DNA of 63,731 nt, filler included, from Rhabdomonas costata (taxonomy: Eukaryota), in assembly GCA_019059605.1 (NCBI GenBank). It is 27 parts of 27 records of this genome, joined end to end, with 100 filler letters (N's around TTAATTAATTAA, not from the genome) between each part and the next. Parts side by side here need not be neighbours in the genome. Positions count along the whole stretch, not along the records: positions 11,826 to 14,098 come from JAHMHO010004416.1; 26 more parts are not named here. One strand, written 5' to 3'. Below are positions 4,381-56,641 of this stretch, piece after piece (the first letter of the stretch is position 1; every line of letters starts with the position of its first letter). A program made the translations under genes and the position numbers. Under the pieces are notes generated by a model that was not told the origin of the DNA, searched no databases, and saw nothing but the letters and a program-made list of their open reading frames with translations.

Positions 4381-7095
4381 ACCGTGCATGGCGTCTGATT
4401 GCTCTGACGCCCTCCCGCTTCTTCGCGTGTCTTTTCTGCGCATGCGAATCATATTTTTCTTCTTGCTGAAGGTCTCTCTCTTCGTGCTCTTCGTTCTCTC
4501 CGTGCTATAACCCCCACTTAACCCACAGCCCCAGTGCATTCATCATCCCGAATCTCGCACATCCAGAACCCGACCCATCCTCCGATTTCAGAGGCGAAGC
4601 ATTCCACGAAAAGCCGACCCCCACACCACCNNNNNNNNNNNNNNNNNNNNNNNNNNNNNNNNNNNNNNNNNNNNTTAATTAATTAANNNNNNNNNNNNNN
4701 NNNNNNNNNNNNNNNNNNNNNNNNNNNNNNTTTTGGTTGGGGGAAGGGTCCTGGCCTGTCGTTTGGTGAGCCGTCACCCAACAACAACAACAACTGTGCA
4801 ATGGGACCCTTCGCGCACGCGTCTCAGGTTAGGAGCAGCTGTTCTTTCCATCATCGCTCTCCTTTCGTGTGTGTGTTTGTCTTTTGATCGCACAAGTGCA
4901 CAAATGTGAACAAACAAAATACAACTGTCCTTAGTCAAATTAGGAACGAATGCAGAAACGAGAACGCTTCCTCGGCAGGGCGTGAAACGCTTTAGGGGGT
5001 CGTGGTGGAGGGCGGCGGGTGCCAAGCTGCGGACCTTCCATGCCTTCTTTTTTTTCTTCTCGCGTCGCTGAAACGTGAGCGTATCAGAAGCTCATATGGC
5101 CGCACGCTTTCAGCAATCGTTCGCTGAAACCGCTTTTTGTGGAAACCGTGTCGTGGAACTGAACGTTTCACCCGTGGCCTTTCTTTGGGGGGGGGGGCCT
5201 TGAGCTTGGTAGCCTGCGTTTGCCAGAAAACTGCAAGCAAGGCAGGGAAACAATTCCCGGATTGAAAATGTGGATGAAAAGTGGGCCTACTGGAAGGAGG
5301 AAAGACGGAAGGGCATTTCTGGATGATCTGTGTGGAAAAAGCAAAGAAAACAAACAAAAACCCCCAATGGAAACGCCTTGCCTCTTAGGAGGGCTGGGCC
5401 AAAGCAAAGCGGATGTGGGCTGCCTCTGCGAGGTGGCTGGAGCAGTGCCGCGGTTCCACGCACTTCCACGAGCCTTCCACTGCCAATGCGGAGGGGGGCA
5501 GACCTCCCGCAGGCCTGGTCTTCCCAACCGAGACAGAGGGAGAAGCCGACGAGGCTGCGGGCCCTCGGCCGCCTGCGCGCTGGGCGACTGACGCCCAAAG
5601 GTCTCTGCAGGGTTTCCGACTTCACAACAAAAATGAAAATACCGTCACATCTCCCCCTCCCCCCTCCCGCGTGCTTCAAGACGGTGGGCACGAATGGCGG
5701 AACACTTTTGTGTTTTGTGCAGCTCAGGAATGTTGGTTTGCAGTGATTTTGTATGCTGTTGAATGGCATGCAATTGGATAGCACTGTTTTCTTGGGAGAA
5801 AAGAAAAAATGATCGCCACGTTTAATATAAGATTTATATACTGACGTTTGACGTGGGTGCGTGGGAGGAGTATGGGGAGGGAACGGGTGGGAGTTTGTTT
5901 CACGAGCGTGGGCCGCCACAACAGTTTTGTGTAATGGATGTACGTCATGTTGTCCGTGATGTTTTTTCTGGGTTCCTTCAGAGGTCCGTGAGTTTCGGCG
6001 GGTGAGCGGTGGGTTTTTCTTTCTCACACTCCGTGTGTTGTGCGCTGCAGTGTGAACCGTTTTGAAAGCCAACGTTCAGAGACAGTGGAGCAGGAGGTGG
6101 TGCCGCGGCCCGAGAAGCGCTCCAAGGAGGTCACTTCCCCTTTGCCCCATCCCTCCCTCCCCCAGAGATTTATAAGGGGTATATATCTGCGGATCCTTAT
6201 AGATGAGGGACTGATGCGTGTGTGTGTGTGTGTTTTTGGGGGGGCGTTTCCAGATGGACTTACACCAAAATTTCTCACCTAATTGGTCTTTTTGCAAATT
6301 TGCTCCTCCGCTTCTCGTTCATGGTCGACCCTTGCGCCTTTTGTCAATTCTCTTCCTCCTGCAATTGTCTGTGATTTCAGCGGTGTCCTGTTCTCTTCCG
6401 GGCCTTGGTGCTTTGTCGGTGACGCGCTTGTTTGCGCTGTTGTGCCGCTGACACCCCGTCTGTGCTGTCTGTGCGGGCATGCCTTCCGTGAAAGTTTTAG
6501 ATGTTTTGCGGTGAATCCATTTCTCACCTTTCCGAGTTTTACAACTAACAATTTGGTGGCGGGGGCGGGGACGTTGACAACTTCTCACCACAATTTCTTT
6601 CCGTTAGCTTCGCCTCGTTCAGAGCGGTGTGTGTGGTGGTGGTGGTGGTGATGGCGGGTTTTTGAAGCAGCGCTGTTATTTGCTCGGTATAGTGCCTGGT
6701 GTCCCGAAGTGCTCTTACGGTTAGCCTCTTTGGGTATTGTTGTGGGTATGTTAGGAACCGTTTTCGGAGATAGGCCAGTATGGGAATTTTGCCTTCCAGC
6801 CCCCGCTTGGAAGTGGAGAACAAGTTTGCGTTTCACGCATTTCGGACCTTTCACACTTCCTCTTCCTGTCACGAGTGGCGCGGTGCTGCGACGGCTCACT
6901 TGCCTTGTTTCTCAGGATGGGTCTGAGCAGCTGGGCTCGCTGGGGCCCACCTCCAAGCCGCAGTCCACCCCTGTGGCCGTGCCAGTGGCGCCAGANNNNN
7001 NNNNNNNNNNNNNNNNNNNNNNNNNNNNNNNNNNNNNNNTTAATTAATTAANNNNNNNNNNNNNNNNNNNNNNNNNNNNNNNNNNNNNNNNNNNN

Positions 7096-11488: not shown

Positions 11489-11725
11489 CTAAATCTCTCG
11501 CTCGGTGAGCTGCTGCCGCCATAGACTGAAGTAAAGCCCCCTCTTTGCGAGCAGTTCCGTATGTGTGCCCTGCTCAGCCAACGTGCCACTGGGGTTGAGA
11601 ACGAAGATGACGTCAGCGTCGCGCACAGTCGTCAACCGGTGGGCAACCATGACAATCGTTCTGGGCTTCGCTGTTCCTGCTGGCCCCGCGCCGTGGTTCT
11701 GAAGGGCCTTAAGAGCGATTTTCTC
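11489..11725 (-). CDS. ABCB-type ABC transporter, C-terminal end of NBD
   Basis: Translates to ...PRTIVMVAHRLTTVRDADVIFVLNPSGTLAEQGTHTELLAKRGLYFSLWRQQLTEREI*, with the H-loop AHRL and the E.GTH.EL...G.Y motif. Confidence 0.9.
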   Translation of the reverse strand, partial: EKIALKALQNHGAGPAGTAKPRTIVMVAHRLTTVRDADVIFVLNPSGTLAEQGTHTELLAKRGLYFSLWRQQLTEREI

Positions 11726-11825: not shown

Positions 11826-13740
11826 TTCGGGTTTTTGAGTTCGGTGTTCGGTCTTTAGGTCTTCGGGTTCTGGGTTCGGGTTTGCCTCCTCGGAGGTTGG
11901 GTTCTTTCTTCAAGCGCATATAAACTACTACAATAATGGACGGGTTAAAATCGGTACCAGCAATTGCGGCTATACCAGACGTCCTGCCTTCTGTTCTACA
12001 CCAGCGTCTTCTTCAGGTATCGCTTATCCATGTAGCCAATTTGTGTGGGTTTCGAGGGTCTCAGGGTCAGGGTTCGTGAGGTATCGGTCTTTCGGCATCA
12101 GGGGTTGGGGTTCGTGAGGGTATGGGTTGGGGGTGTATGCGTATTCGTGGGTGTGTTGCTGGTGGTGTATGCGTGTGTGTCTGCGAGTCGAGGATGGTTG
12201 TGCGTCGGAGTTATGCCTTGGGTTTGGGTTCGTAGTTGTGCCTTTGTGATGTGCTGTGCGGAAACGCTTCTTAGTCAACCATGCCGATTGCACTTTCCCA
12301 TTTCACCGGTATCCATTGTTGTTGGCCTTCCCAGGGATTCAGTGTTCTTACATTTGGTACTGTGTCCTTCGACGAGCGTGCTGGAAGTGATTGGATAGGA
12401 GACCTAAGGGGGACTGTGTGACCAAGCATAAGGCACTACCCGCTTCATAGCTACGACCTAGGTAAACGACACCAACATGCGTACACACGACAAGCTGAGA
12501 TCCCACGTAGGAAACGAGGAAATGGAATGTGGAGTACTACGTGGAAGGCCGCTGGGAAATGGCGATGCGAAGGCTGTACGCAAACGGCACAGGTTGCTCA
12601 AGCGTACGTGCTGACGTTGAACCAAGTGGTAGAGGGTGAGCCGTTGACGTAAACCACAGGTTGGCACACGTCACATGGCCCTTTACAACCAGCGACACAC
12701 ACCGATAGCCACAATGTACGTGTGGGTATAACCAACCTATGGTATGCTGCCATGGTAGTAGTTGTATCGCATGTATGTTATGCCTAGAGGTAAAGCGTAA
12801 GGGTAGTGACAGTGCTACGCTGATCCCTACACCCCAAGCTATACCCTATGCTTCAGTGGCTCCACACAACCCACATGATAGGCTCATGGTTGAGGTCAGT
12901 GGTTAACGGTAGCGTATCAGCAGCAATGCCTACTCTACTCACACCACAGTACCCGAATCATGCCATAGATGTTGGTGGTTGAGGCGTCAGAGTTACCGGT
13001 AGTGGTAGTGCATGCTGCCATTGCTCACACTCCGACACCCGAACCCTAACACGATGGTTGCCTTGGTGGTTGCGTTGATGGTGGTTGTGTATGCCTAGTG
13101 CCTTGACGCTACGCATTACCCTCCACTACCCTACGCACCAACCCATGGAAGAGGTGAAGGGTTAGAGTGAAGTGAAGGGACGCAGTGGTGATGCTGACGT
13201 TGATGCCTAGGGTGTAAATGCCTGATGGTAGAAGTGACGCTAACCCTACCGCTAATGCCTCAACCCAACCCTAAGCGTAACCTTCACTGAGGGTATTCGC
13301 TACGGCTACGCCAAGGACGGAACGAGCGTACCGATGTGAGTCGGGGAGCGAGGGAAGTGACACGTAGGGCAGTTGAAGGGTGGAGGGACTGAGCGTACCA
13401 TCCGTAAGTGGTGGGGAGCTCAGGACCGACAGGGAGATGCCTTGATGCCCGCAAGGGGTAGAGGGCTGCGACCCAGCGGGGAGCCTCTATGGGTAAAGAA
13501 GAAAGGGTTAATGCTGGTCGTGATGCCTCAGGCCGATGCCTTCGTCATCACTCCCTAGATGTGGTGGTTCAGGCTACTCCCCACCCTAAGGTGGTACGTA
13601 GCCTTCACCTTCCCTCCATGATGGTCCCTTCGCTGCGCTCATGGCCCATCATGTAGGGGTATTCGCTGTGGCTACGCCAGGTCGGAACGAGTGGAGGCAT
13701 TCCCTCCACTCGTGAGGGACCCGCGGTCACCAAAGCCTAA
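11826..13740. repeat. G/T-rich tract plus tandem hairpin array (shared family, copy 2), likely retroelement-derived
   Basis: G/T tracts at 11826-11900 and 12045-12250; imperfect hairpins at 12721-13720. 13552-13596 matches 55207-55249. An internal direct repeat gggtattcgct..ggctacgcca.g.cggaacgag sits at ~13291 and ~13657. Confidence 0.75.
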
Positions 13741-13905
13741 CAACGATAAATCCCAAACTGACTCAAAATCAAAGCGTGTAGCACTGCAAAAATTTACCGC
13801 CCTCCCCCCTTGATTTTTATATGCGTCTCCGTGATCTGTCTAAGAGTTTTTTTTGGCAATGCCTGGGAAGCTCCGGATGTGGTGGTGGTGTCAGGCTGAT
13901 GTCCA

Positions 13906-14012
13906 GCCTCGAGGTGCTTCGGAGCCGTCACGAGAGGACGGTGTTTCGGTTAACCCTGGTCAAGGAGTGGAACATGGAAAGCGTCGAGGGCTACGCCCGC
14001 CTCATTGCAGAG
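13906..14012 (+). CDS. Isolated exon, unknown protein
   Basis: ccag acceptor and gtcacg donor flank LEVLRSRHERTVFRLTLVKEWNMESVEGYARLIAE. Confidence 0.45.
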
Positions 14013-14510: not shown

Positions 14511-16463
14511 GTGCTGTTCTTTGGGAACTCGGCGGAGAAGAGCGCCAAGCTGGTGAGCATCCTGAGACAGCTGCAGAAGTATGCGCGGTGTACAAACAAG
14601 CACCACTCGTGCCAGTGCCAGGGTGGTCATTCGGGGTTGGCATCCACTTGTCGACCATAAAGCACGAAGACACCCAAGATGCATGCGTCCAACTCGTGTG
14701 CGGACTCTTGCGTTGCATCAAGATGAGCACCCCCCATCAATCGTTTTCATCCCCGTTGGCGCGGGGACGCCTGTTGTGTTAACATCCACATCTTCGGACG
14801 GGCACAGTCTGTGGGCCTGAAATTCCAAAAAAAAAATTTCACTTCGCCTTGAGCCGTGAGCGTGATAAAACCTTTCCAAGCAAGCCCATTGGCGGAATAC
14901 TCGGGGTGATGGGCATCACCAAGTCAGCAATCGGTTAGAGAAGTCAAATTTTTCACGGTTTTCTCGCATTCTGGTGGGCTCAATTTTTCACAATTTTGCG
15001 GTGGGTATCGGGGTGGGTGGGGACATACATTGGGGTTCCCTCACTAGTGGCAGTCCGTGCACAGTTCGGACATTTCGCAGCTGTCCGTCCAAGACATTGG
15101 AAATAGAGATGCAGCCTTGCCTTTTCTTCTCTCCGACTTGGAGCTTTTTAACTACGAACATGCCTCTTTCCCAGGGATCACCCCGATGACAGCCGAACCC
15201 TGATTTTTGTCAACTCTAAGGTGCCATCCGACCCCCCACTCTTCTCTTCTTCCTTCCTTCCCAGCATATGAAGCTCGAAAACATATCACGCAAAACCAAT
15301 GCCCCTGAACACCACTATCATGCTTTGCAAATTCTGGTGAACTTTGGGATTCGCTGGTCGGTGATAGTGGGGAGCAATTTTTGAGCTCCGGACTGGTTGA
15401 CTACAATGCATCCTCCTCCCCCCTTCCTATCGGTCCTCCACTTCCAAGAAGAATATACGCACAATGGCACAGGAGTTTGGGGATACTCTGCTGGAAGAGC
15501 TCTCGCACTGGTTCCCGGGGCGCGTCCTGGGCCTCCACGGGGAGTTCCCACAGGGTATGGACGCGGGTTTTATCGGGGTTGTGTTGAACTGGCGTACTTT
15601 TTTTTCTGTGCGAGTGAGCTGTGCGTGTTTATTCTCTTCTGGGGTCTGATCCTTGGCTCGAAATGTGGAAATGGAGGCCAGGATAAGTGCGAGTGCACTT
15701 TCTGTGATTGCCATTCTTTGGAATGATTGTTCGGGGATGCGCGAACGATTTTGCTTCCAAATCGTTTCCCCTTTGCTTTTTATGCCTTTCTTGTTGCCCT
15801 TTCAGATCATCGAGAACGTGTACTGGCTCAGTTTCGCCAGGTTTGAATTTCCATCTGACTTCCTTCCGTTTTGCTCTCTTGCCACTGTACACAAGTTAGG
15901 CTTTTCGCTTTGCTACGTTCTCCGCGTGGACACCTGTTCTGCCAACAGGATGGTTGGATGCTTTGTGCTACCTCTTCATGGCGCTGCCCTGTTCATTTGC
16001 TTCCTATTTAGACAGAGATGCGAAAGAAAAAGTTGGCTGGAAGTGTTGAGTTTAGCAGAGCTGTATAACGCACTCGTGATATTCCTCGCGAGGTCCTCCT
16101 TTTTGCATGCCGACGGGTTCAGGACACCGCATCCATCCTGGTGTCCACGGACGTGCTTTCCCGGGGGATGGACATCGGTGGGCTTCCCTGTGTGGTGAAC
16201 TTCGACATGCCGCACGACATCGAGCCCTACATCCACCGCATCGGCCGCACGGGCCGCGCGGGAAGGCCCGGGATTGCGTTCAGCCTTTTTGGGGAGCACG
16301 ACGCCGTGGTGGCTGCAGACCTTGTTCATGTCCTGCAGGCCGCTGGGGCGGAGGTCCCTCCGCTGCTGCTCTCCTACGCCGCCTCCTGGCGCCGTCTGCG
16401 CGCTGAGAGGCGGCGGGCAAGGCGGGCTCGTCGACAAACTGAACAAAACGCCCGCTCTGCCCG
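14511..16463 (+). CDS. DEAD-box RNA helicase, C-terminal domain (exons 14511-14578, 15175-15220, 15473-15554, 15806-15840, 16123-~16463)
   Basis: The exons splice in frame via GT-AG introns to give LIFVNSK (motif IV), [18 protein letters not shown] (QxxR), [10 protein letters not shown] (V) and [12 protein letters not shown] (VI). Confidence 0.95.
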
Positions 16464-20000: not shown

Positions 20001-21352
20001 AAACACAGCCGTTTCCTGAGATGGTCCACCACCCTGCAGTGATTTTAAGTTTCTAACCTTTCCTCGGAAAGGACTCTTTATCACGCTGAACATCATTTCT
20101 CATTACCTGATCCTTCTGCACCTTTTCCCTTTGCATCGACCTCTTCGTCAAACAGCTGCGTCTTTGACGGCTCCAACCCTGCTGAGGTGCTGAGCAAGAG
20201 GGCCTCGAAGGTTTTCTTCGAGGCCCGTGTGGAGGCCATGACCAGCTTCTCTGCCTTGGCGGGGCGGAGCTTCATCGGCATTGTCTGGGTTGTTCACTTG
20301 GAGGGTGTGCAGATCCTCCCCCACTTTCGCGTCTTTGCAAAGAAACTCTTTGCCACGAAATTTCTTAGACCAATGGCATCCATCTGACTCCTCGAGGTGG
20401 CCTTGCTCTACTTCCGCGTGTGCCCTCCCCTCGGTCCTCACTTCTTTTTTATGCTGTGCTCAGAAGTCCAGCGGCGCAGTGTGGGTGAAGGGCAGGAGTG
20501 GGCCTTCACATCCCTTCGTAACCTCACGTCTCTACTGGAAAACGATGGAGCCTTGCTGGTTCTGCTGTTTGCTTTGATTTTTTGTTGCCCCTTGCTCGTC
20601 CCAGAATCTGTTTGGGAAAGATATGGGAGACCTTTTTGCTGACATTTTCCGGCTGCCGTCTCATTGATGTTATTGCTTTTCTTGCCTGAATCATAAGCTG
20701 CCCCCCTCTCAGAAACTGCTGGACGTTGTGTTACCCGCGGTTTCGGCGAGGACAACCCTTTCTCTGAAAAAGGAGCATGAGCATTTTTTGTCAGAATCCC
20801 TCTTCGTGGTTTGGCATCCGAGGGAGAATCTGCGCAACACGACGAACAGAGGAAATAGTGCGGCGTGCATGTTCCCAACAAACCTGCTGGGCGGCGGACA
20901 TTTATAAACAAAAAAAAAGTGGTGGGTCAAGAGTCACCCGGACCAGGAAAGTGCCCGCTGCTGGTTTGCACTCTGCTCTGTAAAGATGAGGAGGATGTCA
21001 TATAGGGAGGGCTATACCGAAGCAGGCCTGGGGTCTTTTGTCTTGTGAAGTGCAATAGATCTTCCGAAACGCTGTGTGGCCGGTCCTAATTGGCCAGAGC
21101 TTCCTGGCCTTTCACCCTCGGCTGGTGGTGGTGCCCCATGGCAGCTCTTCGTATCCTCCTTCCCTTATACTCACCGGGTCGGCTGGGAGTGTANNNNNNN
21201 NNNNNNNNNNNNNNNNNNNNNNNNNNNNNNNNNNNNNTTAATTAATTAANNNNNNNNNNNNNNNNNNNNNNNNNNNNNNNNNNNNNNNNNNNNGGTTGGT
21301 TGGGCTGCTGCTGGTGTTCTTTGTGATGCTTTTCTTCCGCCGCCGCTCTGCT

Positions 21353-23182
21353 CGGCGGCGGAAGAAAAGCATCACAAAGAACACCAGCAGCAGCCCGGCC
21401 AGCCCGGCGGGCACCCCAACAGCCAGGACGATCCACCACATGCTGGTGGGTGGGGCCACGCAGCGGCCCGTGGCCCCATCGGTGGTCTCGTACACCAGGT
21501 TGCTGGCACAGGGCCCGCAGGTGCCCTGCAATGAGTGGCAGAGTCTAAATCCTTTCTTCCCCGGGCAAGCAATTACAGACGGCGTTGTAAGGGTTTGCCC
21601 GACAATTGCTTTCTACCGAAAAGGTGAGGAGGTAAGATTCATGCGCCGGTAGGAAAGCTGGGGCTTAGGGCTCCATCACCAATCCACAAACAGAGGCTGC
21701 GATGAGGTCATGAATGAATTTTTTTTGCGTGAGCGTGTGAAAAATACATAGTCGGCAAACAAAAGAACCACTGGAAAGAAGATAAGCTAACCGTCAGTGG
21801 TGAAGGAACGACGACCAGAAGTAGACAACACCACTTGTAACCGACTGTCACACACTCCCAACCCATACCGACCCTGCCCACAGGCCAAGCGACTGCACGT
21901 AACCAAAGTAAAGGATTTTCCTTCATTAGCGTAAACCGCGAAGTCGACACAAACCTGCAGAATATCGAAAACATAGGGCGCCACGCAGTGCGTGCAGCTC
22001 ATTCCCTTCAGGCTGAACGTTCGAGGGCTGTCATACAGCTCCCCGTCGAACAGCGCCACCACAAAACTGTCCGCGAAGCCCGGCCCACAGCTGAGGTACG
22101 CCGTGGCCTCGGCCATGCTGGGGCGATACCACACCCCCGCCCCAACACCCCACGAGGCATTCAGCCTCAGAGCTGTGGTGCCCAAGGCCGGCGAGAGGCT
22201 CAGCGCGCCCGCGCTGGGCAGCCCCATCAGCACCCAGCTCAGGTTTGTGGGTGTGGCAGGCATGTCCACGTCCGTGCCATTGAGGAGCAGAGTGGTGGTG
22301 GAGATCTGGCTGACGCTTGTCGCAACAAAGGGCACCCAGTGCGGGGCATGGTTGACGTGGATGATGGTGAAGTTGTAATGGATGTCCGAGGTTACCCTGA
22401 GATGATGACGTCGCGGGGGGTTTACGCTGCGCTGCTACGCTTTTTTCGGGGTAGCGGCTCAAATATAGCAAGCGTGAATGCGGCACAATTTGGGCTTTGC
22501 TCGTTTGATCAATAACCCATTCTAATTTCTTCCTTTTCTCAATCTCACCCCCTGCCCACAAAACGCATTGTACCGGTGATCCAGTCCTCAGTTATCAGGT
22601 AGATACCAGAAGTCGTTTTTATGTTTTCAACCCCGGCACTATCCCGGAAACGGATTCGAAAAGAGTCCCCGCTTTCGGGAAAAAATGCATGCACCCACAC
22701 GAACTTAGCCAAAAGCTGCAACCATATTAAAAAAGTAAACATAAACAAACAAACACAACTGTCCCTAAGTCAAGGAATAAAACATAAAAATAACCAAAGC
22801 AAGTGACCGACAACCAACCCTAAAACTACTTTTCCTGTTGCAAAGCACTGTGGGAACACTTCCCGAGCGAACTTGGAAGAACTGTCCACTTGACAGAAAT
22901 GAAGACAGGCACGTACACCAAACGAGCCAACACTCCCACAAAGTAACACAAGTAATCCAAAAAACCCACTTTCCCATCCCACATCTCAATTCCACAGCAC
23001 CTGGTGAAATCTCCAGGGCAATCCGTGAAAACAAACCGGAACTCGTCCAGGCCCCACCCCAGATGGAAGGGGCGGTACTCCAGATTGTACGGCGGACCGA
23101 CCTTGTCCATGGGCGCGTCGTAGGTCCCAATGAGCATCGCTCCTCCGAGCTCGAAGTAGGTCTGGTACACGCTACAGTCGAA
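21353..23182 (-). CDS. Type I membrane protein with Ig-like (Big_9/cadherin-like) repeats, a Cys-rich segment and a TM helix, partial
   Basis: HVNHAP...LNGTDVD...LSWVLMGLPSAGAL...VWYRP...ADSFVVALFDGEL fits the Big_9 pattern, and YRPFHLGWGLDEFRF looks like the end of another repeat. These are followed by CGPC...GRC, the TM segment WWIVLAVGVPAGLAGLLLVFFVMLFF and an RRR stop-transfer. Confidence 0.7.
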
Positions 23183-30751: not shown

Positions 30752-33016
30752 AATCATCAAGAGAGCTCTGCTCGACAGAACCAAAGCTCCACTTTCGACA
30801 GAATATGGTTTTGTGGGTTGCAATCTTTGAAAACTGATAGATGAATCGGTGGTAAAAACCACAAAATCCGAGGAACATTCAGACGCTCTTGACGTTTCGT
30901 GGGGTTTCACATTAAGAGATTGACAGCAGTTTCTCAGTGACTGGTAGGATGCCACCACCAAGGAAGATGTAGCCAACGAAGTCGATTTCCTGTTGAGCGA
31001 AGTAACACTTTTCAATTTTACGAATAGTAGCTCATTCCGGAGTAAGCTCGTGACTCGATAGAGGTGTCACAGTTGTTTTTTGAGTGTCTCCGAGAAAACG
31101 AAAGTGTTACCGAAGTAAATGGGTGAAGTCTGTTATTTCGAAAAACGCAAAATTCATCGTTCTCTGAAAGTTGGAGGTGCATTTGTAAGACCGAATGGCA
31201 TCACTGTCCAGTCGAAGAAGTTTTTTGGAAAGCCGTTTGCGATTGTCTCCAGTTCTGATTCGAGTTTGATGAAACTCGCTCGATAGGTGCATCTTCGAAT
31301 AGTAACATGCCTTCTTCATTATCTCGAAATTTTTGTTTCGTCAATTTGTGTCAACTGTTACTTGTTCTTGACCGCGATACTGTAGTCAATCACCGTGCGT
31401 TGTAAATTGTCCTCCTTGTCCCGCAAGAGAACAGGTGCTCCATACGGGCTAATAAATAGTCGCGTTTTTCCTGATTCAAACAACTCACAAAACTGTTTAC
31501 AAACTTCCGCTTTGTCGATGTGTGACATCCGGTAGAGTGGGTGTGCCGGAGGCTTAGAGCCGTGTTCTGTGTTAATTAGATGGACGGTGGACAGGTATGT
31601 GGAAGTCCACTGGTAAGTTTCTCCGGGAATACAAGATGGAACTCCCCGATCAATCTAGTGAAGATTACCGGAACCGTTGTTCACTGGCCACCTGTGGTCT
31701 ACGCCAATTGTGATAATCCTTAGGTGTTGTTGATTGATACCACTCGGAACCGGTGGTACGCTCGTTACCACGCATATGTCTATTTTCCGTGATGGTCCTT
31801 TTGTACATCAGGGCGCATCACGTTCACTGATGCTACGCCAGGACTACTGAATATGAGGGCTGCAAGACCAAAATGTGATGGAGTGACACGTATAGAAGAT
31901 AAAGATGGGAAAATTAGAAACATATTGAACGTGACCTGTTTGACACATGCGTATATACACGTATATATTGTATCTACATCTGAAGCTGAATTAACAGTTG
32001 TGATACAATGAGCTATTTTTGATGCTCAATTAGTCACTGCCAAACTAAATTTTAGGTCTTTCAGTGTCGTGGAACCGGTGGCATACTGACGATCCGATTC
32101 ATCCAAATTGATTGCCATTTATGTGTTTGGATTTACACTCGTTCCACTAATCATCTAGTCTTGTGATGATCTGCCTTGTAGTGTTGGCAAACGTTGCAGG
32201 AGTCGATGTGTTGACGAACAAGTACTCTCATTTTCAGGAAGTAGAATCTACTCTGGATAATGCTGACTGGTTTAATTAACTTAATGGATCCATTAATCGC
32301 CTGACACCATGGTGTCGTGGTAAGAGGAGATGATTCTGTTCACTCAACTATTTGGTACCAATATCCTGTCATTTGCCTACAACATACCATACTTTTAATG
32401 CTTTCACTTGTCGTTGTGGATCTCGTTAGTACTTGTATCAAGAAAGTAATCTTCAAGCAGTATCATTGCCTGTCCAACAAGGCATCGGATCATTAACCAT
32501 TACTTGGCCGCACAACATCCAGTTTCCTGCTGCTCGTGAAGTACAGAAAAACTTAATGGACGGAAGTGGTTGTCATGTTGAATTCCTGAAGTCTGTGCAA
32601 TCATCAAATCTGACGAGGGATCGGATTTTCCATCGTTTGCACGAAGCGAAGACAAGTTTTGTCTGTGAATACATCATGGAGGTAATGTCTCCACTTGTTG
32701 ACTGCATCGACTAGAGCCAAAAGTTTTTAATGTATTGTGTAGTTCGCTTTGTGCACGTAGAGCGTTCGAATAGTTTAGAAAATAAGTCTGGCATTGCTCC
32801 AATGCCAGAGTCAAAGCATCACTGTACAAGATGAACGACTTTCTGTGATTCTAAAATGCAGGAACGACGTATATAGTAATATGTGTTCAAATCATCAAGA
32901 GAGCTCTGCTCGACAGAACCAAAGCTCCACTTTCGACAGAATATGGTTATGTGGGTTGCAATCTTTGAAAACTGATAGATGAATCGGTGGTAAAAACCAC
33001 AAAATCCGAGGAACAT
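30752..33016 (-). mobile_element. Decayed Ty3/gypsy pol (RT, RNase H, integrase), circularly permuted contig
   Basis: RT: PPAHPLYRMS...SPYGAPVLL and FLGFCGFYHRFIYQFSKIA. RNase H: FILYSDA and LLALVDAVNKWRHYL. Integrase: IISSYHD...VRQHIDSCNVCQHYK. Many stops and frameshifts. Confidence 0.92.
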
Positions 33017-35493
33017 NNNNNNNNNNNNNNNNNNNNNNNNNNNNNNNNNNNNNNNNNNNNTTAATTAATTAANNNNNNNNNNNNNNNNNNNNNNNNNNNN
33101 NNNNNNNNNNNNNNNNTGTTGGGGTGTGTTTGGTTGGGGTTGGGAAAAATTGCAATTACTGAATGTAATCACTTCAGGTTGTCGACCTGTTGCTTTTTGT
33201 TTTCGTTTTCGTGAGTTGGCAATCCGTCATGCCTTCTCGCTGCAACCCCGAAGCAAGGATGAAAATCACGTCCACGTGCAAACGTCAGGCAGCAAACAAC
33301 AAACCAACAAAAATTGCGGAATAGGCTTATTCGGTTAGCCCCTCCCTATTACACAGTGCCCCAATTTAATAGCGGCGTTATTACAAATGGATTCAAAATA
33401 GAAGGGGCGCTATTGCTGTTTGTTTGGTCTAGGACCACTCCGCTGTGCTGAGCTTTTCCCGATAACCTGTTCAAAACTCCACGGTCCCTTGTGGTCACTG
33501 TTATCACGGGTATCCCACTGTTCACGGTCACGCCTTGCTCTTCCTTTCAGCTTGGTCCCTACCTTCTAAAATATCATTTTTCATGCGCAGGACTACATTT
33601 TTATGGTACACGCTAGACACACGCCACTGAACGCGACTTTTTTTTTCTAAATTCGAAAGCATTTCTGAACACGTCCGTCGAAGCTTTGTCTGAATTTTCG
33701 ATCCCTTATTTGTATTGAACAATCATTAATCTCTTTTTTATTTCTGGCAGCAAATTAGCAAATTAGAGGCATCCTCCACTAAATGTTGAAATTATCGGCG
33801 CATCTTGAACAACAATCTCTCAATGCATAGCTCCTATCTCTGTTGGGTTTGATGGGGTTTGGACTTCAAGGCGTAGTTGACCAGCTTTTTTTTTTCACGC
33901 GTTTAACCCAACAAAGCAGGGTGCAATGCAGATGCAAGGAATATTCAGACCACAAACCTAATATAAAACAAAAAGTACCCATCTCTCTTAAAAAGTAAGC
34001 ACTCAAAACTACAAAAGGAACTTTAGTGACCCAAGAAGGAACCGAATTGTCCGAGAGAAAACTTTTACTCATGAAATGGAATAAACATGATTTTCAAATT
34101 AATATTCCTATCTATTTTCAACATCTCACCTGCATTCCAAAGCAAGGGCAACAAGCAAAACAAAGAAAAGCGCCATTTGGGAAATCCGAACTCAACTTCA
34201 TTTTCGAATTTTCAGGCAGCTCGACAAAATATTTCAGAAAAAAATTAGCAACGTTTTCAGAAGTTTTGGGTCTTCTGTTGAGTCGAACCCACACGAACCC
34301 CATACATAGGACCCCCTGTCCCTCGGTGTTCTCGATCAACCACGGCGGGTTGTGATGGACCAGGGCAGGTGAACAAATCGATGATACAAACGTGCAGGGG
34401 AAAGAAGTTAGTCTGAAAAAAGGGAACTGGGGAAAGGGAAAGATGCTCACCAGGGTTTCTGGAACCTTGTTTGTGCTTAAAAAAAACCGCAAAGATTTGC
34501 ACTGAGCAGTTTGAAGTCAAAAACCACAAACTACAACATGAAACATATAAATATCTTTCTTCGTGACGGTGTCCCCAGCGTTGCTTCCTACCCAGAGAAG
34601 GTGCCTGATCCCCTGAAGAAAAAGCCCAGAGGGCTCTTGAGTCAACCGACCGTTTTCAGCAAAAGGCTGCAGAGCGTGCGCAGGCCTTGACGGTGGTGGT
34701 GAATTGTCCTGCATGCCGCGCCCAACTTCACGCGATTCGGTAGCAATTCTATTCGTAATTCGCAATCGGTCAATTCAGTCCGTATTGCGTCTTCCACGTT
34801 TACCAACATTTTTTTAGGAAGGTTGTTCTGAAGCTTCAGTATTTTGGTAAGTTGTAAAAATAAACAGCCGTGAAGCTCTTGAACCAGGTGTGCAATTTGC
34901 CCGAGTGTTCAGAAAGTTGGTGTGCGCGTGTCTTGGGTGCAGGGCGGTGCAGGGCCCGCCGGCCACGTGTGCATCTAACACCGCGTAGGAGTAAACAAAC
35001 GTTTATAGGGGGGCGGTGATTATTCCCAGGGATGAGCGGGTTCGACAGGTTCTATTTAAAGCGGTTATAATCAGGGACGACAACTGCGAAATTTGCAAAA
35101 TCAGTAGGATCTGCACACTGGTTTGCAGTTAGCGTGCAAAAGAATTTTAGTGTGGAATTGTTTGCGGGTTTTTTGTAATGTGGTGTGACAATGTAACTGA
35201 CGTTTCCCCGATTTCCCTTCCTTCTCATCACGTTCCTAGACATTCTCTTTTCTTTTGCCGGCCCCCCTCTTTCTTTCATCCTCCCTTCCCTGTCACTGAA
35301 CCGATGAGCTCCAACTCTTTGGACGCTGGCCTCCATCGAAGGCCGCCCGAGTCGACGGGAACCTTTCCACGGATANNNNNNNNNNNNNNNNNNNNNNNNN
35401 NNNNNNNNNNNNNNNNNNNTTAATTAATTAANNNNNNNNNNNNNNNNNNNNNNNNNNNNNNNNNNNNNNNNNNNNGTTGTTGTGGACTCTCAC

Positions 35494-39208: not shown

Positions 39209-40228
39209 TCTCTGCACTTGTAGCAGAGATTGTATACGTTTTTACACGTTTGCGTGGACATATTCCTTGCTGTTCCTGGCATCATTGCGCTAGTGCCGCT
39301 TGTATACGATATGAACGCCCTTTGCTGCGCTTCCGTGGCGAAGCCCGCCGGAGGAAAAGAGGAAGTGGTTCCGCTCTGCAACATAGTACCCATCCCAGTG
39401 GTGGTTTCAGTTTTAACTCAGTCTCTTCTGTTCAGGTTCTCGGGCTTTGATCAGGCTTTTAGTATTGCGCCTTCGAAGGGGGCGGGAAAATGTTGTTGCT
39501 GGGAATTTTAATGTTTTTTTGCACTCACACCAATGCGGCCATGTGTGCTGAATTTTTACGTTCCCGGATCTGGAGAGTGAGGAATTATATCTTGTTGCTG
39601 TTGCTGTATTTTAGTGTCAAGGGGGAGAAAGGAAGAGGTGGAAAAATGAAGTTCTGCAAGCACGGTTGCAATGCTTCGAATGACCGGTGGTACTCCGAGG
39701 GGAGCTGAAGAACTGCAGAGAGAGAGAGAGAGGGAAGTGGAGTGGGGTGGTCGACCGGTGCATGAATCAGCCTGCTTTCGGAGGATGAGTCAGAATACTT
39801 CCATTTTTCAAACAAAATTCTAAAATCCTGCCTTCCCGTGACGCTGTTCTCCTCTGTCCCTCAGTGAATTCGCTGCTGTTCTCTCGCTGTGTGTGTGCCT
39901 GTACTTGTCTTTGCTTTGAGAAAGCGGTGGAACCTGTTCCTTGGAAACGCAGGAAAGGTTTCACCTTTTTCAACCTCTCCTCTCCCCTCCTTCCCTCCTC
40001 CTCCCCCGTGTCCGCATGGCCGTCTGCGAAAGCATGACGAGCTGGAAGGACCAAGTGGTACGTGTGCGCCTGCGTATACAGTGCNNNNNNNNNNNNNNNN
40101 NNNNNNNNNNNNNNNNNNNNNNNNNNNNTTAATTAATTAANNNNNNNNNNNNNNNNNNNNNNNNNNNNNNNNNNNNNNNNNNNNTGTGGTGGGTGTGTGT
40201 GGTGGTGGTTGGGAGGGGACAGACCAGG

Positions 40229-41756: not shown

Positions 41757-43584
41757 CTGGCAGCGTGGGTACCAGCAGTTCAGCATTCATGACGCACCAC
41801 ATCGACTGGCAGCAGGAGCCAAGAATCTGTTTCTTAAAGAAGAAATTTGCGGGCGAAAGATAAGCCTACAAAGATGAGCATATACGAACGGTGGTTGGCG
41901 ACCTACCCCGCAATGTTCTGGCCGTGGCCGAAGAGAAAAAAAGCCCGGCACCCAAAAAAACGCCAGCTTTCTTTGTGATGCGACTTCCTGAACGCCACCT
42001 TTTCCACCTTTTTGGATTTGACAGCAAAAAAAAGAAGAGAAACTATATGGTATTTGAGATTTTGGACAAGTTCGCCGTCATTGCTTTCTTCCTTGGAAGT
42101 GCTTTTTTTGGGCGTAAAGTCTCTCAGTTCAAAGAGAAGCGCAGAAGCGCATGATCTATTTTACCGACCAGACCATTTTTCGGAAGGCAAAAATGGTCAT
42201 TGGATCGCATGTATATGTAACATTGTCATAGGCCGAAACAGCGCCTTCCAGCTCTCCTCCACCCCTCTACTTCAGAATCGGCCTATTTTGGTCCATCACT
42301 ACAACCAATTATCTATTTGTCTCCAGTCGAAAGAGGGGAGAAAGCGCTATTTTTGTGCACTTGCCGTTTTATTTCGAAGTACGATGGTACGCAGCTGGGT
42401 TTTCAGTGAAACCCACCTGCGTACCATCGTACTTCGAAACAAAACAANNNNNNNNNNNNNNNNNNNNNNNNNNNNNNNNNNNNNNNNNNNNTTAATTAAT
42501 TAANNNNNNNNNNNNNNNNNNNNNNNNNNNNNNNNNNNNNNNNNNNNTTTGTGGGTGTGTGTGTGTGTGTGTGTGTTTATGAAAGTTCACTGCGCTGGGC
42601 TACACCGCCAGGGTGCTATTTTGTCCTTTTTAATGGCGTTTTTCGCTCGTCGTTGGCGATTCTGCCTTTATATGACCCTAAAACCGTCACCTGAGCTTGT
42701 ACTATGCAGCTTTCCTTCTTTTCGTGCTCTCCTCCTTCTTGCCACTCAGTGCTTTCAGTTCAAGTCCAGTTCCAGTGATGATGTGCGGGGTGCGCATCCT
42801 CCGCTTCTTTTGAACACAGTCGGTTTGACCTTGCCATGAACTCCTTGTCGGACGGGATGGTGGCCCAACTTGGGCTAATGCAGGAGCTCAACCGCCAGCC
42901 CTTTGCGTTGAAGGAGCTTGTCCTCTCTGCGTTTGCCTCAATGGGAAATCCTGTCCCGAAACAGCCCCTCATCAACTTGAGGCGCGCACATATTTGTGCA
43001 CTCTCGCTTTTGCTCTTCTTATGGGTTCAGGCTGGGCGGAGGATCCTAAAAGTTATGCCACCAAATTCAGGCGTCGCAAAAGTGACTTTTTGCATTCCTT
43101 TTTGCATTCCCGAATGCCGGAAGCACCCTGCTTTCGCAAGTCAGGCCAGGTCGGGTTACAAAAAGGCTGCGGGAATATGACATTTTGACCTTACCGGAAT
43201 TTCCTCACCTAAAGTCGCCCAGCAATAGAATCAAGTGAACAACATGGGACCACAAACAAAGAACCGGGCCCAATCCGATGGTTGGTATTCCGGTGGTTGC
43301 GGTTCCGGTGGTTGCGGTTCCAGCCTATCACTTTCCCTTCAGCAAAGGCCAAAGGCCTCAAAGGTCTCACTTCCGTTTAGAAAAGACTTGCGCGTCTAGT
43401 CTTCGGCGAGACCTTGGTGAGGCCGCGGCGAGGATGGGTAAGGTTCGTTGTTGCTGCTTCTGCTGCTGCTGCGAGGAGGTCACCTCTTCCCTCTTTCTTC
43501 CTTTTGGCCAGTGTTGTGTGTGCTCCCCCGTTACCCCGCTCCCTTCAAAAACATAGGTGGAGTTGTGTTGCTTCGTCCGATCAG

Positions 43585-44682: not shown

Positions 44683-44810
44683 GTGGAATAGTTTGGCCCG
44701 TGTCAGTTCAGTTTAAAAGTAGGATTCAAAGCGAGGCAAAAACACCTTTAGGTTTTCAATGCCCCCTTTTAAATTTTAAGTCTGAACTGACACGGGCCAA
44801 ACTATTCCAC
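44683..44810. repeat. 29-bp inverted repeat flanking 70 nt (MITE-like or fold-back)
   Basis: gtggaatagtttggcccgtgtcagttcag (44683-44711) is the exact reverse complement of 44782-44810. Confidence 0.85.
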
Positions 44811-54377: not shown

Positions 54378-55260
54378 TGTCGGTCTTGGGGTTTACGTCT
54401 TCGTGTTTTCGGGGCTCAGGGTTTACGTCTCAAGGTCTCATGGTTTGTGTGTTATCAGTGCTTCTACTACGCTTGTGTTTCAGAGTGTGTCTTGGGGTTC
54501 AGGGCTTCTTGGGTTCTTGTTTGTGGAGGGTTGGGGTGTGAGGGGTTCATGAGTATCAGCATGACTATGAGTGAAGAATGCAGTAACTCAGCATGACTGT
54601 GAGAGAATAAACCCAGAGATGCCAGAACCCTCATGCCTCAACCCTTCTTTGTTGCTTCCTAGAACCCCTAGATGCCTTCTATCGCTGATGCCCTCTACTA
54701 CGGATGGCTCCACTGCGTGACCCATCCTTCGTGACCTTAAGCCTTAACCTCTACCGGTATTCTCTTCGTGTGGCTTCGCCCGGTCGGAGCATCCTGTAAG
54801 CGTCTTATGACGGTGGAAGGATGCGAAGAGACACGTATAGAAGAAGAGGGGAAGCATTCGAGGGACCGAGAATGCTGACAGTGGAGTATTCTGCTGGTCG
54901 CATCTCCCTTCGGTCGATGCTCCCGAGATGCAGAAGAGGGATTCCTGATACCCCATGCCTTACTCGCTGATGCTCGTAAGTCATGGGGCCCCTAAGAGTA
55001 TTTGCTGGTCGTCACTCCCTTCCGGTCGTTCCTCCCTAGATGTGTTGAAAGGGTATGCCTTCTGTCGTCGCTCCACCCCCATAAGGGGCTTACGCTCCTC
55101 CTACCCTCCCCACGCCTACTCGCTGGTGGCTCGTAGGGTGGGGAGTGAAGGGCCGTTAAGACATCAAGGGAGTACATTGCTGTCGGTCGTCACTTCGTTC
55201 CTCCCTCCTAGATGCGTGGTTCACTCACTCCACCGCCCTAAGGATGGTAATTCGGACTCC
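54378..55260. repeat. G/T-rich tract plus hairpin array (shared family, copy 3), 3' of the gypsy integrase
   Basis: Similar to 2803-2998 and 13290-13720. An internal unit gagta..(t)gct(g)gtcg-hairpin-cc.agatg occurs at ~54885, ~54997 and ~55170. Confidence 0.8.
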
Positions 55261-55429
55261 GTAATGGAGTCTGTCCTCCACTCGGCTCGGATCTTGACCT
55301 GAACTTCCCTCTCGATCGACACTCGTACCTGTGGATGGGGATGTATCATCACTTCCTCCATCATCATCTGGAACGCTTTCCCTTGGATCTTTATTGCAGT
55401 ACGCCCCATCCTCCTGTAACATTCCCACG

Positions 55430-56641
55430 TGGTCGAGCACTCTCGTCTCGTACGGGATGAGATCGCTCGAGTGAAATACTTGATGCGCTCTCCCCCGCAC
55501 CTCCGGTTGTCAATCACAAAGTTTGTCTCCGTAATCTTTTTAATGATGGTAAACGGTCCCACCGCCTTCGGCATCAACTTCCCAGTGTGGTCTCCAAACC
55601 TCCCCCGGTAACGATTCCGCTTACTGATCAACACATCCTGACCCACACAGAATTTGTAACCAGCTCTTTTGAGATGGGCATACGTCGCAACCTTTTGCTT
55701 CTACTTCTCTAATGCGTTCTTCCAAGTTGTTTTCATTTTCTGAAATCTGGAATCTTACCTTCACCTTGTGGGGGCTCTGTAGACTCTGGAAGGTCCCACC
55801 AGAACACCGTATGGTACCAGTAATTCAGGAATAAAGGGCTGTACTCTGTATTGGCAATAGGCGAACTGTTTATTGCAATCAATCTCCACCAGGACCAAAA
55901 GATCCATACAAGTAGTGCCTTTATGCGAATACATCAGCGTAGTCATCACCTGCTTCATGGTCTGGTTGGTCCTTTTGGCTTGCCCATTTATCTTTGGATG
56001 GTATGGAAAGGATCTTCTGCTCTGGATGTCCGGGAAGGCCATAAGAACTATCCAGAACACTGACATGAAGATCGGACTTTGATCGCTCACAATAATCCTC
56101 GGCAAACTGTGGTGTCCCACAAGAACAACTATTCAATATTGTGGGCCTTCATTTCGTTATGGCACGGTGTCAATACAACCATCTTCGTAGCCCGATCTGT
56201 AACGGTCAACACCTCATTCTCCACCTGCCATTTGCCTGAAAACTTCCAAGGGCCTGGCGGCGCGGAAACGAAATCCATTGAAATGGATTCCAATTTTCTC
56301 ACGGGTACCTCCAACACCTGTGTATAACCTCTTGGCTCCGCTTTGCATCTCTGACACACACCACAGGTACGCACATAAGCTCGCACCTTTCTCTTGATGT
56401 TATTGAAAGTGTAAGTGCGCTTGATCAGGGCGGCCGTCCTGGCCACTCACCAATGTCCTGCTGCGGGAGAATTGTGGTACCGCAAAATCACCTCTAACTC
56501 CCTCTGAAAATGTACCACAATCTTCCCCAGATCCCAAAGTCTACCATAGTACCACTTTGTAGAGTCCACCAAATCTGAAGTGGTCAAGTTGAAATACCTC
56601 TTACGCACTACCGGGTCAATCCAGTAGTCGTCCCACCAACC
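55430..56641 (-). mobile_element. Decayed Ty3/gypsy integrase
   Basis: H2C2 finger YHNSPAAGHW...VRAYVRTCGVCQRCK, ISMDFV, LPRIIVSDQSPIF, YHPKINGQAKRTNQ and the GPY/F module KLMPKAVGPFTI...VFHSSDLIPY. Stops and frameshifts present. Confidence 0.95.

Follow-up and report, generated by a model that had tools for sequence, protein, structure and literature searches.

Does the stretch of about 1 kb at positions 12721-13720, which reads as a run of back-to-back imperfect hairpins, carry a set of structured RNAs, or is it non-coding DNA of another kind? The window analysed here (63,731 nt, filler included) joins 27 contigs, unrelated to one another and each about 2.26 kb long, with N linkers between them, from the heterotrophic euglenid Rhabdomonas costata, and the array sits in one of these, contig S6 (11826-14098). 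To our knowledge, few accounts exist of mobile elements in euglenids. The initial annotation saw no credible ORF in the region, and this is borne out: the longest stop-to-stop frames touching it are of 102 aa (12540-12845) and 86 aa (13287-13544), both on the minus strand, and the 33 frames in S6 of 45 aa or more all lack Pfam matches below E 0.1. A comparison with Rfam, proposed there as a check on an RNA reading, gave no family. Up to E 1, S6 matches only mir-885, with 20.4 bits (E 0.53) where the gathering score is 66, and no match in the whole window reaches its gathering score.

The array itself comprises about six imperfect fold-backs at 12721-13290, placed back to back and each G/T-rich in its 5' half and C/A-rich in its 3' half (12721-12771, 12782-12851, 12886-12962, 12963-13059, 13054-13149, and 13154-13287). 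The alternation of the two kinds of half, already pointed out from the bare sequence, is real at 12721-13325, with a period of ~90-100 nt. Keto/amino (K/M) skew over 12526-13325 has a period of ~85-100 nt, and its spectral power at 12726-13325 is the strongest in the window, ranking 1 of 917 600-nt windows (17.3, where the mean over the whole window is 4.3 with an sd of 2.2), while the periodicity is absent from 13288-13612. The units beginning at 12886, 12963, and 13054 have (G)ATGG/GATGTTGG at the start and a CCAT-like sequence at the end, and ATGCCT or a near variant lies close to the apex in several units. This motif occurs 11 times on the plus strand of S6 and once on the minus strand, with 0.7 expected, and is found 4 times on the plus strand and 0 times on the minus strand of another contig, S24. 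The array arms contain 15-30% other bases and are ~79% complementary (131 of 166 aligned pairs). In unit-to-unit nhmmer comparisons, only 12876-12962 and 12963-13051 are alike (E 0.06-0.13), all other pairs having E > 0.4.

Seven hairpins had been named, their boundaries chosen by eye: 12721-12771, 12782-12851, 12886-12962, 12970-13051, 13054-13147, 13154-13287, and 13613-13658. In that order, the plus-strand z scores against dinucleotide shuffles are -0.97, -3.09, -3.03, -4.64, -1.99, -0.94, and -2.47, those on the minus strand are 0.07, -2.12, -0.80, -3.27, -2.44, -1.56, and -2.71, and quarter-composition-preserving shuffles of the plus strand give -2.67, -3.62, -2.46, -4.12, -1.36, +0.19, and -3.32. 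Four to five of the units thus beat shuffles, whereas 13054-13147 and 13154-13287 are at chance level. The 1-kb windows of the region rank 2nd to 13th of 702 in summed hairpin energy, and a fixed-grid scan covering 14 of the 27 contigs finds z < -2 in 9 of the region's 42 windows versus 7.3% of all 1372 windows. The fold-back excess is real yet modest (top 2% of 1-kb windows), because each contig yields 6-15 comparable single hairpins (-18 kcal/mol or lower) per strand and 2.26 kb; with the same best-of selection applied to all 54 contig-strands, the plus strand of S6 has the highest count, 17. As a practical warning, 50% GC sequence of any kind can be divided by eye into "consecutive hairpins." When arms are paired across units, alternatives as good as own-arm pairing number 4 of 720 if judged by energy and 19 of 720 if judged by alignment. 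The K-arms pair nearly as well with M-arms of other units (ddG down to -26 kcal/mol across units), a sign of motif content common to the units. The advantage of own arms over cross-unit pairing is not predicted by a pure shared-motif model.

Is one strand preferred? The initial annotation held that the structure is maintained in a single-stranded plus-strand molecule, several stems depending on G.U pairs that exist only there. Its example stem, 12998-13009/13014-13025, can be read off the sequence as described, with 12 pairs, 5 of them G.U. A general dependence of this kind is not found: transition mismatches in strand-neutral arm alignments are balanced, at 8 G.T-type versus 10 A.C-type, or 13 versus 10 when the example stem is included manually. 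Summed hairpin energy differs between plus and minus by an ordinary amount (-37.5 kcal/mol), matched or exceeded in 44% of 351 control windows. The summed MFE of the seven units is -191.6 on the plus strand and -176.1 on the minus strand, and the conserved hairpins described below fold equally on both. With no excess of G.U over A.C and the usual energy difference between strands, the idea of a maintained plus-strand molecule is not supported. The fold-back potential is probably a DNA-level inverted-repeat property, equal on both strands.

A further candidate, already ranked low at the outset, was a cluster of single-hairpin AGA-box (H/ACA-like) pseudouridine guide RNAs. The accessible part of PMC2613932 reports that single-hairpin guide RNAs occur clustered in Euglenozoa, and the AGA-box snoRNAs of trypanosomatids and Euglena described there resemble the array in being euglenozoan single hairpins, tens of nucleotides long, that lie in clusters. 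In those RNAs, AGA follows the basal stem at a distance of 1-3 nt and stands 3 nt before the 3' end, a large internal loop (the pseudouridylation pocket, 5-11 nt on its 5' side) separates two stems, and bipartite rRNA complementarity lies 13-16 nt upstream of the box (PMC2613932, as far as accessible). Rfam detects no rRNA within the window. The array departs from this pattern in that AGA falls 1-3 nt past the basal stem in 0 of the 7 units, although it does follow two of them within 7 nt, at offsets 6 and 7. A pseudouridylation pocket is also missing, the largest internal unpaired run being at most 5 nt in six of the seven MFE structures, which are predictions only. Moreover, unit sizes vary from 46 to 134 nt, and the common K-to-M polarity and cross-pairing arms misfit independent guide sequences. 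On the AGA distance and the loop, and lacking an Rfam match, such a snoRNA cluster was rejected as scarcely credible.

A link to a retroelement had also been proposed, with the plus strand of the array antisense to the integrase of a related copy, and both parts are supported here. Contigs S24 (54378-56641) and S14 carry minus-strand integrase remnants, and their non-coding DNA has blocks like those of S6. The S24 integrase (55221-56641, minus) is of Ty3/gypsy type, with zinc-binding H2C2, catalytic core, and SH3 parts, and is broken by one in-frame stop and one frameshift. Profile matches on this strand include Integrase_H2C2 (E 1.4e-7) and SH3_Tf2-1, a Tf2-type SH3 (E 1.3e-5), and the core piece matches the PFV integrase in the PDB (E 9e-7). 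In S14, an Integrase_H2C2 remnant (32154-32339, minus; E 1.2e-6) lies upstream, in minus-strand sense, of a module at 31783-31911 (plus) that consists of a hairpin, the conserved block TGCTACGCCAGG, and a GACACGTATAGAAGA block also present in S24. An RVT_1 match in S14 at 31157-31315 (minus) is weak (E 0.02, below the Pfam cut-off). The ORF at 31358-31654 (minus), taken by eye for a reverse transcriptase, was confirmed by neither Pfam nor the PDB; a neighbouring frame weakly resembles RVT_1.

The related non-coding copy in S24 (54378-55320, plus) holds a G/T-rich block, an ATGCC-motif region, a hairpin (54701-54727), a conserved block (54759-54786), and two CCCTAGATG...CCCTAAGG blocks, and the non-coding blocks of S6 and S24 are collinear. 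When S6 13280-13760 was used as the query, S24 scored best of 206 control windows (24; mean 11.8, sd 2.0) and S14 second (19). The alignment z is 6.9 for S14-S6 and 5.6 for S14-S24, in a comparison of related copies limited to three contigs of a fragmented, whole-genome-amplified assembly.

At the center of the shared DNA is a conserved block of ~25 nt, GGTATTC...GGCTACGCCAGG, with four copies in S6 (two), S24, and S14. The S6 copies lie at 13292-13316 (GGTATTCGCTACGGCTACGCCAAGG on the plus strand, ...TGGCGTAGCC... on the minus strand) and 13658-13682 (GGTATTCGCTGTGGCTACGCCAGG), both assigned to the minus strand. In all three contigs the block is adjoined by a GATGG/CCATC hairpin (S6 13613-13658, S14 31788-31822, and S24 54701-54727), which shows paired double changes at six register positions and a retained mismatch at two. 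A covariance model of hairpin plus block, R1, recovers S6 copy 1 (E 6e-6), and a search with it gave no copies past S6, S14, and a weak S24 match. The block, which ends ...GCCAGG on the plus strand, is a candidate primer-binding site (PBS) of the element's sense (minus) strand; ARAGORN finds no tRNA gene within the window. Next to it, the non-coding stretch 13317-13598 (minus) is a candidate LTR, homologous to S24 54787-55307 (z 7.0 versus shuffles), which lies between integrase and conserved block. The CA of the LTR end and the TG of the LTR start are not clean in every copy. A pair of LTRs inside S6 is unsupported: 13683-13925 and 13317-13598 are alike over ~50-70 nt with z 1.0, in contigs shorter than the whole element. 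Within the candidate LTR, 13540-13596 is the single S6 copy of the CCCTAGATG...CCCTAAGG block, a short conserved stem on either strand. A pyrimidine tract on the plus strand at 13597-13612, GGAGGGAAGGTGAAGG on the minus strand, is a candidate polypurine tract (PPT); the minus strand reads GGAGGGAAGG and the S24 counterpart beside the integrase GAGGGAAG, a weak likeness with an exact match of 8 nt only. Finally, a 100-nt hairpin (13656-13755) spans the second conserved block, with ~-44 kcal/mol and z ~-4 on both strands.

We therefore consider it probable that the array consists of degenerate fold-back subrepeats belonging to a decayed LTR retroelement of Ty3/gypsy type, in its leader/LTR-proximal non-coding region. 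The sense strand of this element would be the minus strand of the window, as would any element transcript. On that strand, the order common to the copies runs from integrase remnants (S24, S14) through 300-500 nt of shared non-coding DNA, the candidate LTR, to the conserved block ...CCTGGCGTAGCC..., the candidate PBS, and then the GATGG/CCATC hairpin. S6 holds this module twice, with the single hairpin (13613-13658) beside one copy and the array beside the other, where the fold-back appears multiplied, as about six diverged units in tandem (12721-13290). These appear to be built from recurring family motifs (ATGCCT, GGTGGTTG, and CCCTAA-like), first forward and then inverted, and the array would most likely stem from slippage, unequal exchange, or template switching in reverse transcription. 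We infer both this mode of origin and the LTR, PBS, and PPT labels. The units at 12721-13150 match nothing significantly in S24, S14, or the other contigs of the window (z 2.4), so that it is their position and the short motifs in common that assign them to the element. An integrase-LTR-PBS order would arise only from elements in tandem, from circle junctions, or where the assembly path runs through a repeat.

In LTR elements the leader is located just past the PBS, and in retroviruses and LTR retrotransposons leader stem-loops lie downstream of it. The hairpins could be functional structured RNA of the retroelement, either minus-strand packaging/dimerisation leader stem-loops or small-RNA precursors. 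Consistent with this, four to five units beat composition-preserving shuffles, own-arm pairing is superior to nearly all alternatives, and the block-adjacent hairpin is retained in three diverged copies with its paired double changes. That hairpin also follows the PBS-like block directly in minus-strand sense, the leader position, and in this it resembles known leader stem-loops. The array differs from them in its roughly sixfold multiplication, seen in one copy only. A strand signal is wholly absent, however, and the consensus fold of the units at 12876-13153 is weak (-3.8 and -3.7 kcal/mol), with 1 of 13 pairs covarying on the plus strand and no convincing covariation among three aligned units. 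Fold-backs that arise by inverted duplication also yield "covariation" among paralogous hairpins without selection. We regard functional RNA as unlikely. A bolder form of the idea, to which we give little credence, is that non-autonomous gypsy-derived euglenid elements multiplied the post-PBS leader hairpin into a tandem array of diverged stem-loops maintained in foldable form, which would act as a multivalent packaging/dimerisation signal hijacking the proteins of an autonomous element or as a hairpin source of small RNA silencing the family.

The array could instead be an independent satellite- or telomere-repeat-like (e.g., subtelomeric) inverted-repeat region with retroelements inserted nearby, the shared blocks not belonging to the element. 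TTAGGG/CCCTAA-type hexamers are enriched in S6, with 26 versus 0-10 in the remaining 26 contigs, and across 12721-13300 all 13 C-type matches fall in C/A-rich halves and the 4 G-type matches in G/T-rich halves. The left end of S6 (11826-12250, plus) is a G/T-rich degenerate repeat block with GGGTTC/GGGTCA-like units, and related blocks open contigs S24 (54378-54550) and S2 (2365-2985). The retroelement genes are broken, and the LTR, PBS, and PPT labels are unproven. Yet the telomere-like matches are single units, none in tandem, and Tandem Repeats Finder found no telomere-like tandem repeats. The order of integrase, shared blocks, conserved block, and hairpin in S24 and S14 is likewise unpredicted by chance insertion, and we find a satellite or telomeric origin distinctly unlikely.

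Could the array be an artefact of whole-genome amplification or assembly, in which G/T and C/A sequence from primers, or chimeras formed by snap-back, became part of the contig? According to the accessible text of PMC8219788, the Sigma WGA4 kit and SPAdes were used for the R. costata draft, and that of PMC3615066 states that WGA4 uses degenerate adapters. Runs of at least 8 nt of G/T only start 17 of the 27 contigs, and such runs of A/C only end 15, while the opposite polarity (A/C-only start, G/T-only end) occurs in 0 of 27. Terminal palindromes are present in contigs other than S6, and the units at 12721-13150 lack a second copy in the window. Against an artefact, an 18-nt universal kit primer is not found in S6 even with 3 mismatches allowed, and the composition and incomplete complementarity of the arms are unlike primer concatemers or fresh snap-backs. 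ATGCCT and further motifs are common to the array and S24, and the flanking modules are backed by diverged copies in two other contigs. We judge an artefact very improbable. The kit primer has a single match in the window, at the start of contig S18 with 2 mismatches. The R. costata spliced leader, as given in the accessible part of PMC8219788, has no match at up to 3 mismatches, and its 10-nt core has one, equal to chance expectation. As a second practical warning, contigs of this assembly are short and retain amplification-primer remnants.

Plant Ogre/Tat lineages of Ty3/gypsy elements carry tandem subrepeats in untranslated regions. Their short, diverged tandem arrays, copy-variable and in the non-coding part of gypsy-type elements, are like that of S6, which differs in its fold-back units, its keto/amino polarity, and an apparent location beside a PBS-like block rather than in the 3' UTR. 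TRIM/LARD elements, including Cassandra with its tandem LTR-internal-LTR form, share with S6 a short non-coding internal region with only PBS-like and PPT-like signals, flanked by LTR-like stretches, and conserved RNA secondary structure has been reported for elements of this type (PMC7215508, accessible part). S6 recalls the tandem arrangement of Cassandra in that an LTR-like stretch is followed by the PBS-like block again. Unlike Cassandra as described in that part of PMC7215508, an element of plants, S6 comes from a euglenid and lacks both a clean LTR pair and a 5S or other pol III module. A fold-back subrepeat array is not among the TRIM features described there.

The array is most likely non-coding DNA of a decayed retroelement, not a cluster of dedicated RNA genes, and would open a new question of RNA biology only if expression data show discrete products. 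What emerges is an initial outline of how the non-coding part of a gypsy-type family is organised in a heterotrophic euglenid: a PBS-like conserved block, a neighbouring hairpin, and variable fold-back subrepeats. In the literature searched for Rhabdomonas retrotransposons, one preprint turned up, in which the species figures solely for virus-like methyltransferases. A metagenome scan with the conserved-block pattern returned 0 loci, and one with the integrase core returned one locus, L001, at 29% identity.

The hairpin array on contig S6 (11826-14098) probably belongs among the already known kinds of retroelement non-coding repeats, and the initial annotation of the region is partly confirmed. 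Its view that no credible ORF is present is borne out: the longest stop-to-stop frames touching 12721-13720 measure 102 and 86 aa, the 33 S6 frames of 45 aa or longer yield no Pfam match below E 0.1, and an Rfam search returned nothing usable. The alternation of G/T-rich and C/A-rich halves is also real, with a period of ~85-100 nt that fades past ~13300; periodic power at 12726-13325 is 17.3 (mean, 4.3; standard deviation, 2.2), the strongest in the window (rank 1 of 917). Tandem subrepeats occur in the untranslated regions of gypsy-type elements and are close to the S6 array. Closest are non-autonomous derivatives of LTR retroelements whose internal region is of a minimal PBS-PPT type, such as the Cassandra TRIMs, which form tandem LTR-internal-LTR arrays (PMC7215508). 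In the literature searched, retrotransposons of the euglenid Rhabdomonas costata are not described; the one paper that mentions both the species and retrotransposons deals with other genes.

The link to a retroelement proposed in the annotation proved right, as integrase remnants lie on the minus strand of contigs S24 and S14, both of which have blocks in common with S6. In S24 (54378-56641), the related copy to which the annotation refers, a broken minus-strand integrase matches Integrase_H2C2 (E 1.4e-7) and a Tf2-type SH3 (E 1.3e-5), and the integrase core piece matches PFV integrase (E 9e-7) and the Ty3 polyprotein (E 0.12). To the left of this integrase, 54378-55320 is non-coding and has collinear blocks in common with S6, namely, a G/T-rich start, the 12-mer ATGCCTCAACCC, GGTATTC...GGCTTCGCCCGG, GACACGTA, and CCCTAGATG...CCCTAAGG. 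When S6 13280-13760 was compared with 206 control windows, S24 was best (score, 24; mean, 11.8; standard deviation, 2.0) and S14 next; S6 13317-13598 against S24 54787-55307 gives a z of 7.0. S14 has the hairpin plus block TGCTACGCCAGG at 31786-31842 (z 6.9 to S6), an Integrase_H2C2 remnant at 32154-32339 (minus strand, E 1.2e-6), and a weak RVT_1 match at 31157-31315 (minus strand), and it has GACACGTATAGAAGA in common with S24 (z 5.6). Long G/T-rich degenerate tandem repeats with GGGTTTACGTCTCA-like units occupy 2365-2985 of contig S2 and 54378-54550 of S24; they are 68% alike across ~185 nt and in style akin to the start of S6. The S2 block ends in GTAGGGGTATTC, the first part of the conserved block, and what comes after it is unrelated.

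On the minus strand, S24 and S14 have the same order: integrase, 300-500 nt of common non-coding sequence, the ~25-nt conserved block, which here reads ...CCTGGCGTAGCC..., and a GATGG/CCATC hairpin. This order would correspond to pol, LTR, primer-binding site (PBS), and leader; a tandem or circle junction would give it, as would an assembly path running through an LTR. We infer the labels LTR, PBS, and PPT, all of them candidates. The candidate polypurine match is 8 nt long, an LTR pair inside S6 is unsupported, and the window holds no tRNA to compare with the candidate PBS. Putative Ty3/gypsy membership is supported by the integrase linkage in the two related copies, with the LTR pair, PBS, and PPT as candidates.

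S6 holds the conserved block twice, at 13292-13316, where R1, a covariance model of hairpin and block, scores E 6e-6, and at 13658-13682. The array adjoins the first copy and a single hairpin the second. With the GATGG/CCATC cores in register, the stem of this hairpin is kept in S6 (13613-13658), S14, and S24, both sides changing at six positions and a mismatch also being kept at two. All of these changes are Watson-Crick to Watson-Crick and are therefore silent on strand. As the S24 hairpin lies ~30 nt farther from the block than those of S6 and S14, the three units may be paralogues and not orthologues in the strict sense. The block-adjacent hairpin, in its three copies, is the sole place where different sequences keep the same fold.

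That claim, made in the annotation for the array units at large, does not stand there. The units are alike only weakly (best pair, 12876-12962 with 12963-13051; E 0.06-0.13), and folding units 12876-13153 to a consensus gives a poor structure (plus strand, -3.8 kcal/mol; minus strand, -3.7), with compensatory change in 1 of 13 plus-strand pairs. A G/T-rich arm does almost as well when paired with the C/A-rich arm of another unit, and several of these cross pairs reach -20 to -26 kcal/mol, which shows that short motifs common to the units make up the arms. Arms still pair somewhat better with their own partners: of 720 pairings, only 4 are as good by energy and 19 by alignment score. The pattern fits an origin in which the fold-backs would have arisen as inverted duplications and then decayed, a route that would not require selection on RNA. 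Less probably, the array is a functional leader structure or a small-RNA source.

Among the motifs, ATGCCT occurs 11 times on the plus strand of S6 and once on the minus strand (0.7 expected), and GCTACG, AGCGTA, and ACCCTA also recur. Hexamers of the TTAGGG/CCCTAA type are enriched, with 26 in S6 versus 0-10 in other pieces; within 12721-13300, all 13 C-type hexamers fall at C/A-rich-half sites and the 4 G-type ones at G/T-rich-half sites. It is possible that the array is a telomere-like satellite merely neighbouring retroelements, but this leaves unexplained the gene-to-block order repeated in two contigs. The units at 12886, 12963, and 13054 start with (G)ATGG/GATGTTGG and end CCAT-like, as does the 13613-13658 hairpin, and the array may represent local multiplication of the fold-back module seen there singly. 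No other part of the window has a significant counterpart of units 12721-13150.

Folding on the plus strand against dinucleotide shuffles gave z of -3 or below for three of the seven units named in the annotation and near -1 for two. When the shuffles keep the composition quarter by quarter, z is still below -2.6 for four units, while 13054-13147 and 13154-13287 are no better than chance, so that the hairpins hold up only in part. By the same best-of selection, hairpins of -18 kcal/mol or lower number 17 on the S6 plus strand and 6-15 per other contig strand. Out of 702 one-kilobase windows, those in the region take ranks 2 to 13, and on a fixed grid over 14 of the 27 contigs, z is below -2 in 9 of 42 region windows versus 7.3% overall. 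As hairpins are easily found in this DNA, these ranks make the array an upper-tail, not an extreme, feature.

The annotation ascribed the structure to a single-stranded plus-strand molecule, several of whose stems depend on G.U pairs. Its example stem does have 12 pairs, 5 of them G.U, but the generalization fails: when arms were aligned with G.T and A.C scored alike (131 Watson-Crick pairs and 17 transversion mismatches), the units had 8 G.T-type versus 10 A.C-type mismatches, or 13 versus 10 with the example stem added by hand. Summed MFE is -191.6 for the plus strand and -176.1 for the minus strand, and the plus-minus gap in summed hairpin energy is matched or surpassed in 44% of 351 control windows. 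Of the conserved hairpins, the most stable (13563-13610, 13613-13658, and 13656-13755) fold as well on one strand as on the other. A lack of strand preference had been named in the annotation as grounds for refutation; no such preference is found, which counts against this reading, and the plus-strand RNA inference is unsupported. The annotation had also suggested, as less likely, a cluster of AGA-box guide RNAs. By the criteria published for that class (PMC2613932), the suggestion fails: AGA lies 1-3 nt past the stem in none of the seven units, six of the seven are missing the large internal loop, and the units range in size from 46 to 134 nt.

That the array is an amplification artefact is a reading that deserves respect. 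Adapters of the WGA4 amplification kit are, as far as is known, composed solely of G and T. A G/T-only run of at least 8 bases opens 17 of the 27 pieces and an A/C-only run of at least 8 bases closes 15, the reverse pattern occurring in 0 of 27 in each case. In most pieces these runs occupy 8-31 bases at the start or the end (e.g., 33117-33144, 40185-40213, and 42548-42578); internal runs of at least 8 nt are also common (337 G/T-only and 257 A/C-only in 61 kb). The terminal runs were most likely left by degenerate whole-genome-amplification primers and do not belong to the genome. For the R. costata draft, cells were sorted, their DNA was amplified with the Sigma WGA4 kit, and SPAdes was used for assembly (PMC8219788); the kit uses degenerate adapters (PMC3615066). 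Against an artefact, an 18-nt universal primer is absent from S6 even at 3 mismatches, the arms are not G/T-only, their complementarity is imperfect, motifs are common to the array and S24, and diverged copies bear out the array flanks.

The 63,731 bases are not a single locus. The 27 pieces, of 2,246-2,277 bases each (~2.26 kb), are apparently length-sorted and mostly without relation to one another, and are joined by N44-TTAATTAATTAA-N44 linkers at 2265-2364, 4631-4730, and on, spaced about every 2365 bases. As neighbouring pieces are not genomic neighbours, synteny is not to be read across the linkers. Two pieces have 127-base direct repeats of the sort that a de Bruijn assembler typically leaves. 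In S14 (30752-33016), the 127 bases at both ends are 99% identical, giving a period of 2138 nt; the assembly graph therefore has this contig as a circle or a tandem repeat. It may represent tandem copies of a retroelement with a deletion, or a circle junction. In contig S25 (56742-59004), 56742-56868 and 58753-58879 are 99% identical with a spacing of 2011 nt, a further sign of a repeat or a circular path in the assembly; the contig also has several long ORFs that overlap. Terminal palindromes in contigs S10 (21294-21404; 111 nt, 90% self-complementarity), S18 (42366-42445; 81 nt, 91%), and S19 (44683-44810; 134 nt, 75%) look like snap-back amplification chimeras or real inverted repeats breaking the assembly, that of S10 having the most extreme fold z-score of the scan (about -12 to -13). 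At 33152-33176 in contig S15, CAATTACTGAATGTAATCAC is similar to the published R. costata spliced leader over the first 20 bases of the latter but lacks its T-run; a full 27-nt search allowing 3 mismatches gave no spliced-leader match there, and it may be a chance match or a degenerate spliced-leader-related sequence. By eye, 11489-11725 (minus strand) resembles the C-terminal part of an ABC transporter ATPase and 16069-16463 (plus strand) that of a DEAD-box helicase, both being truncated at a contig end.
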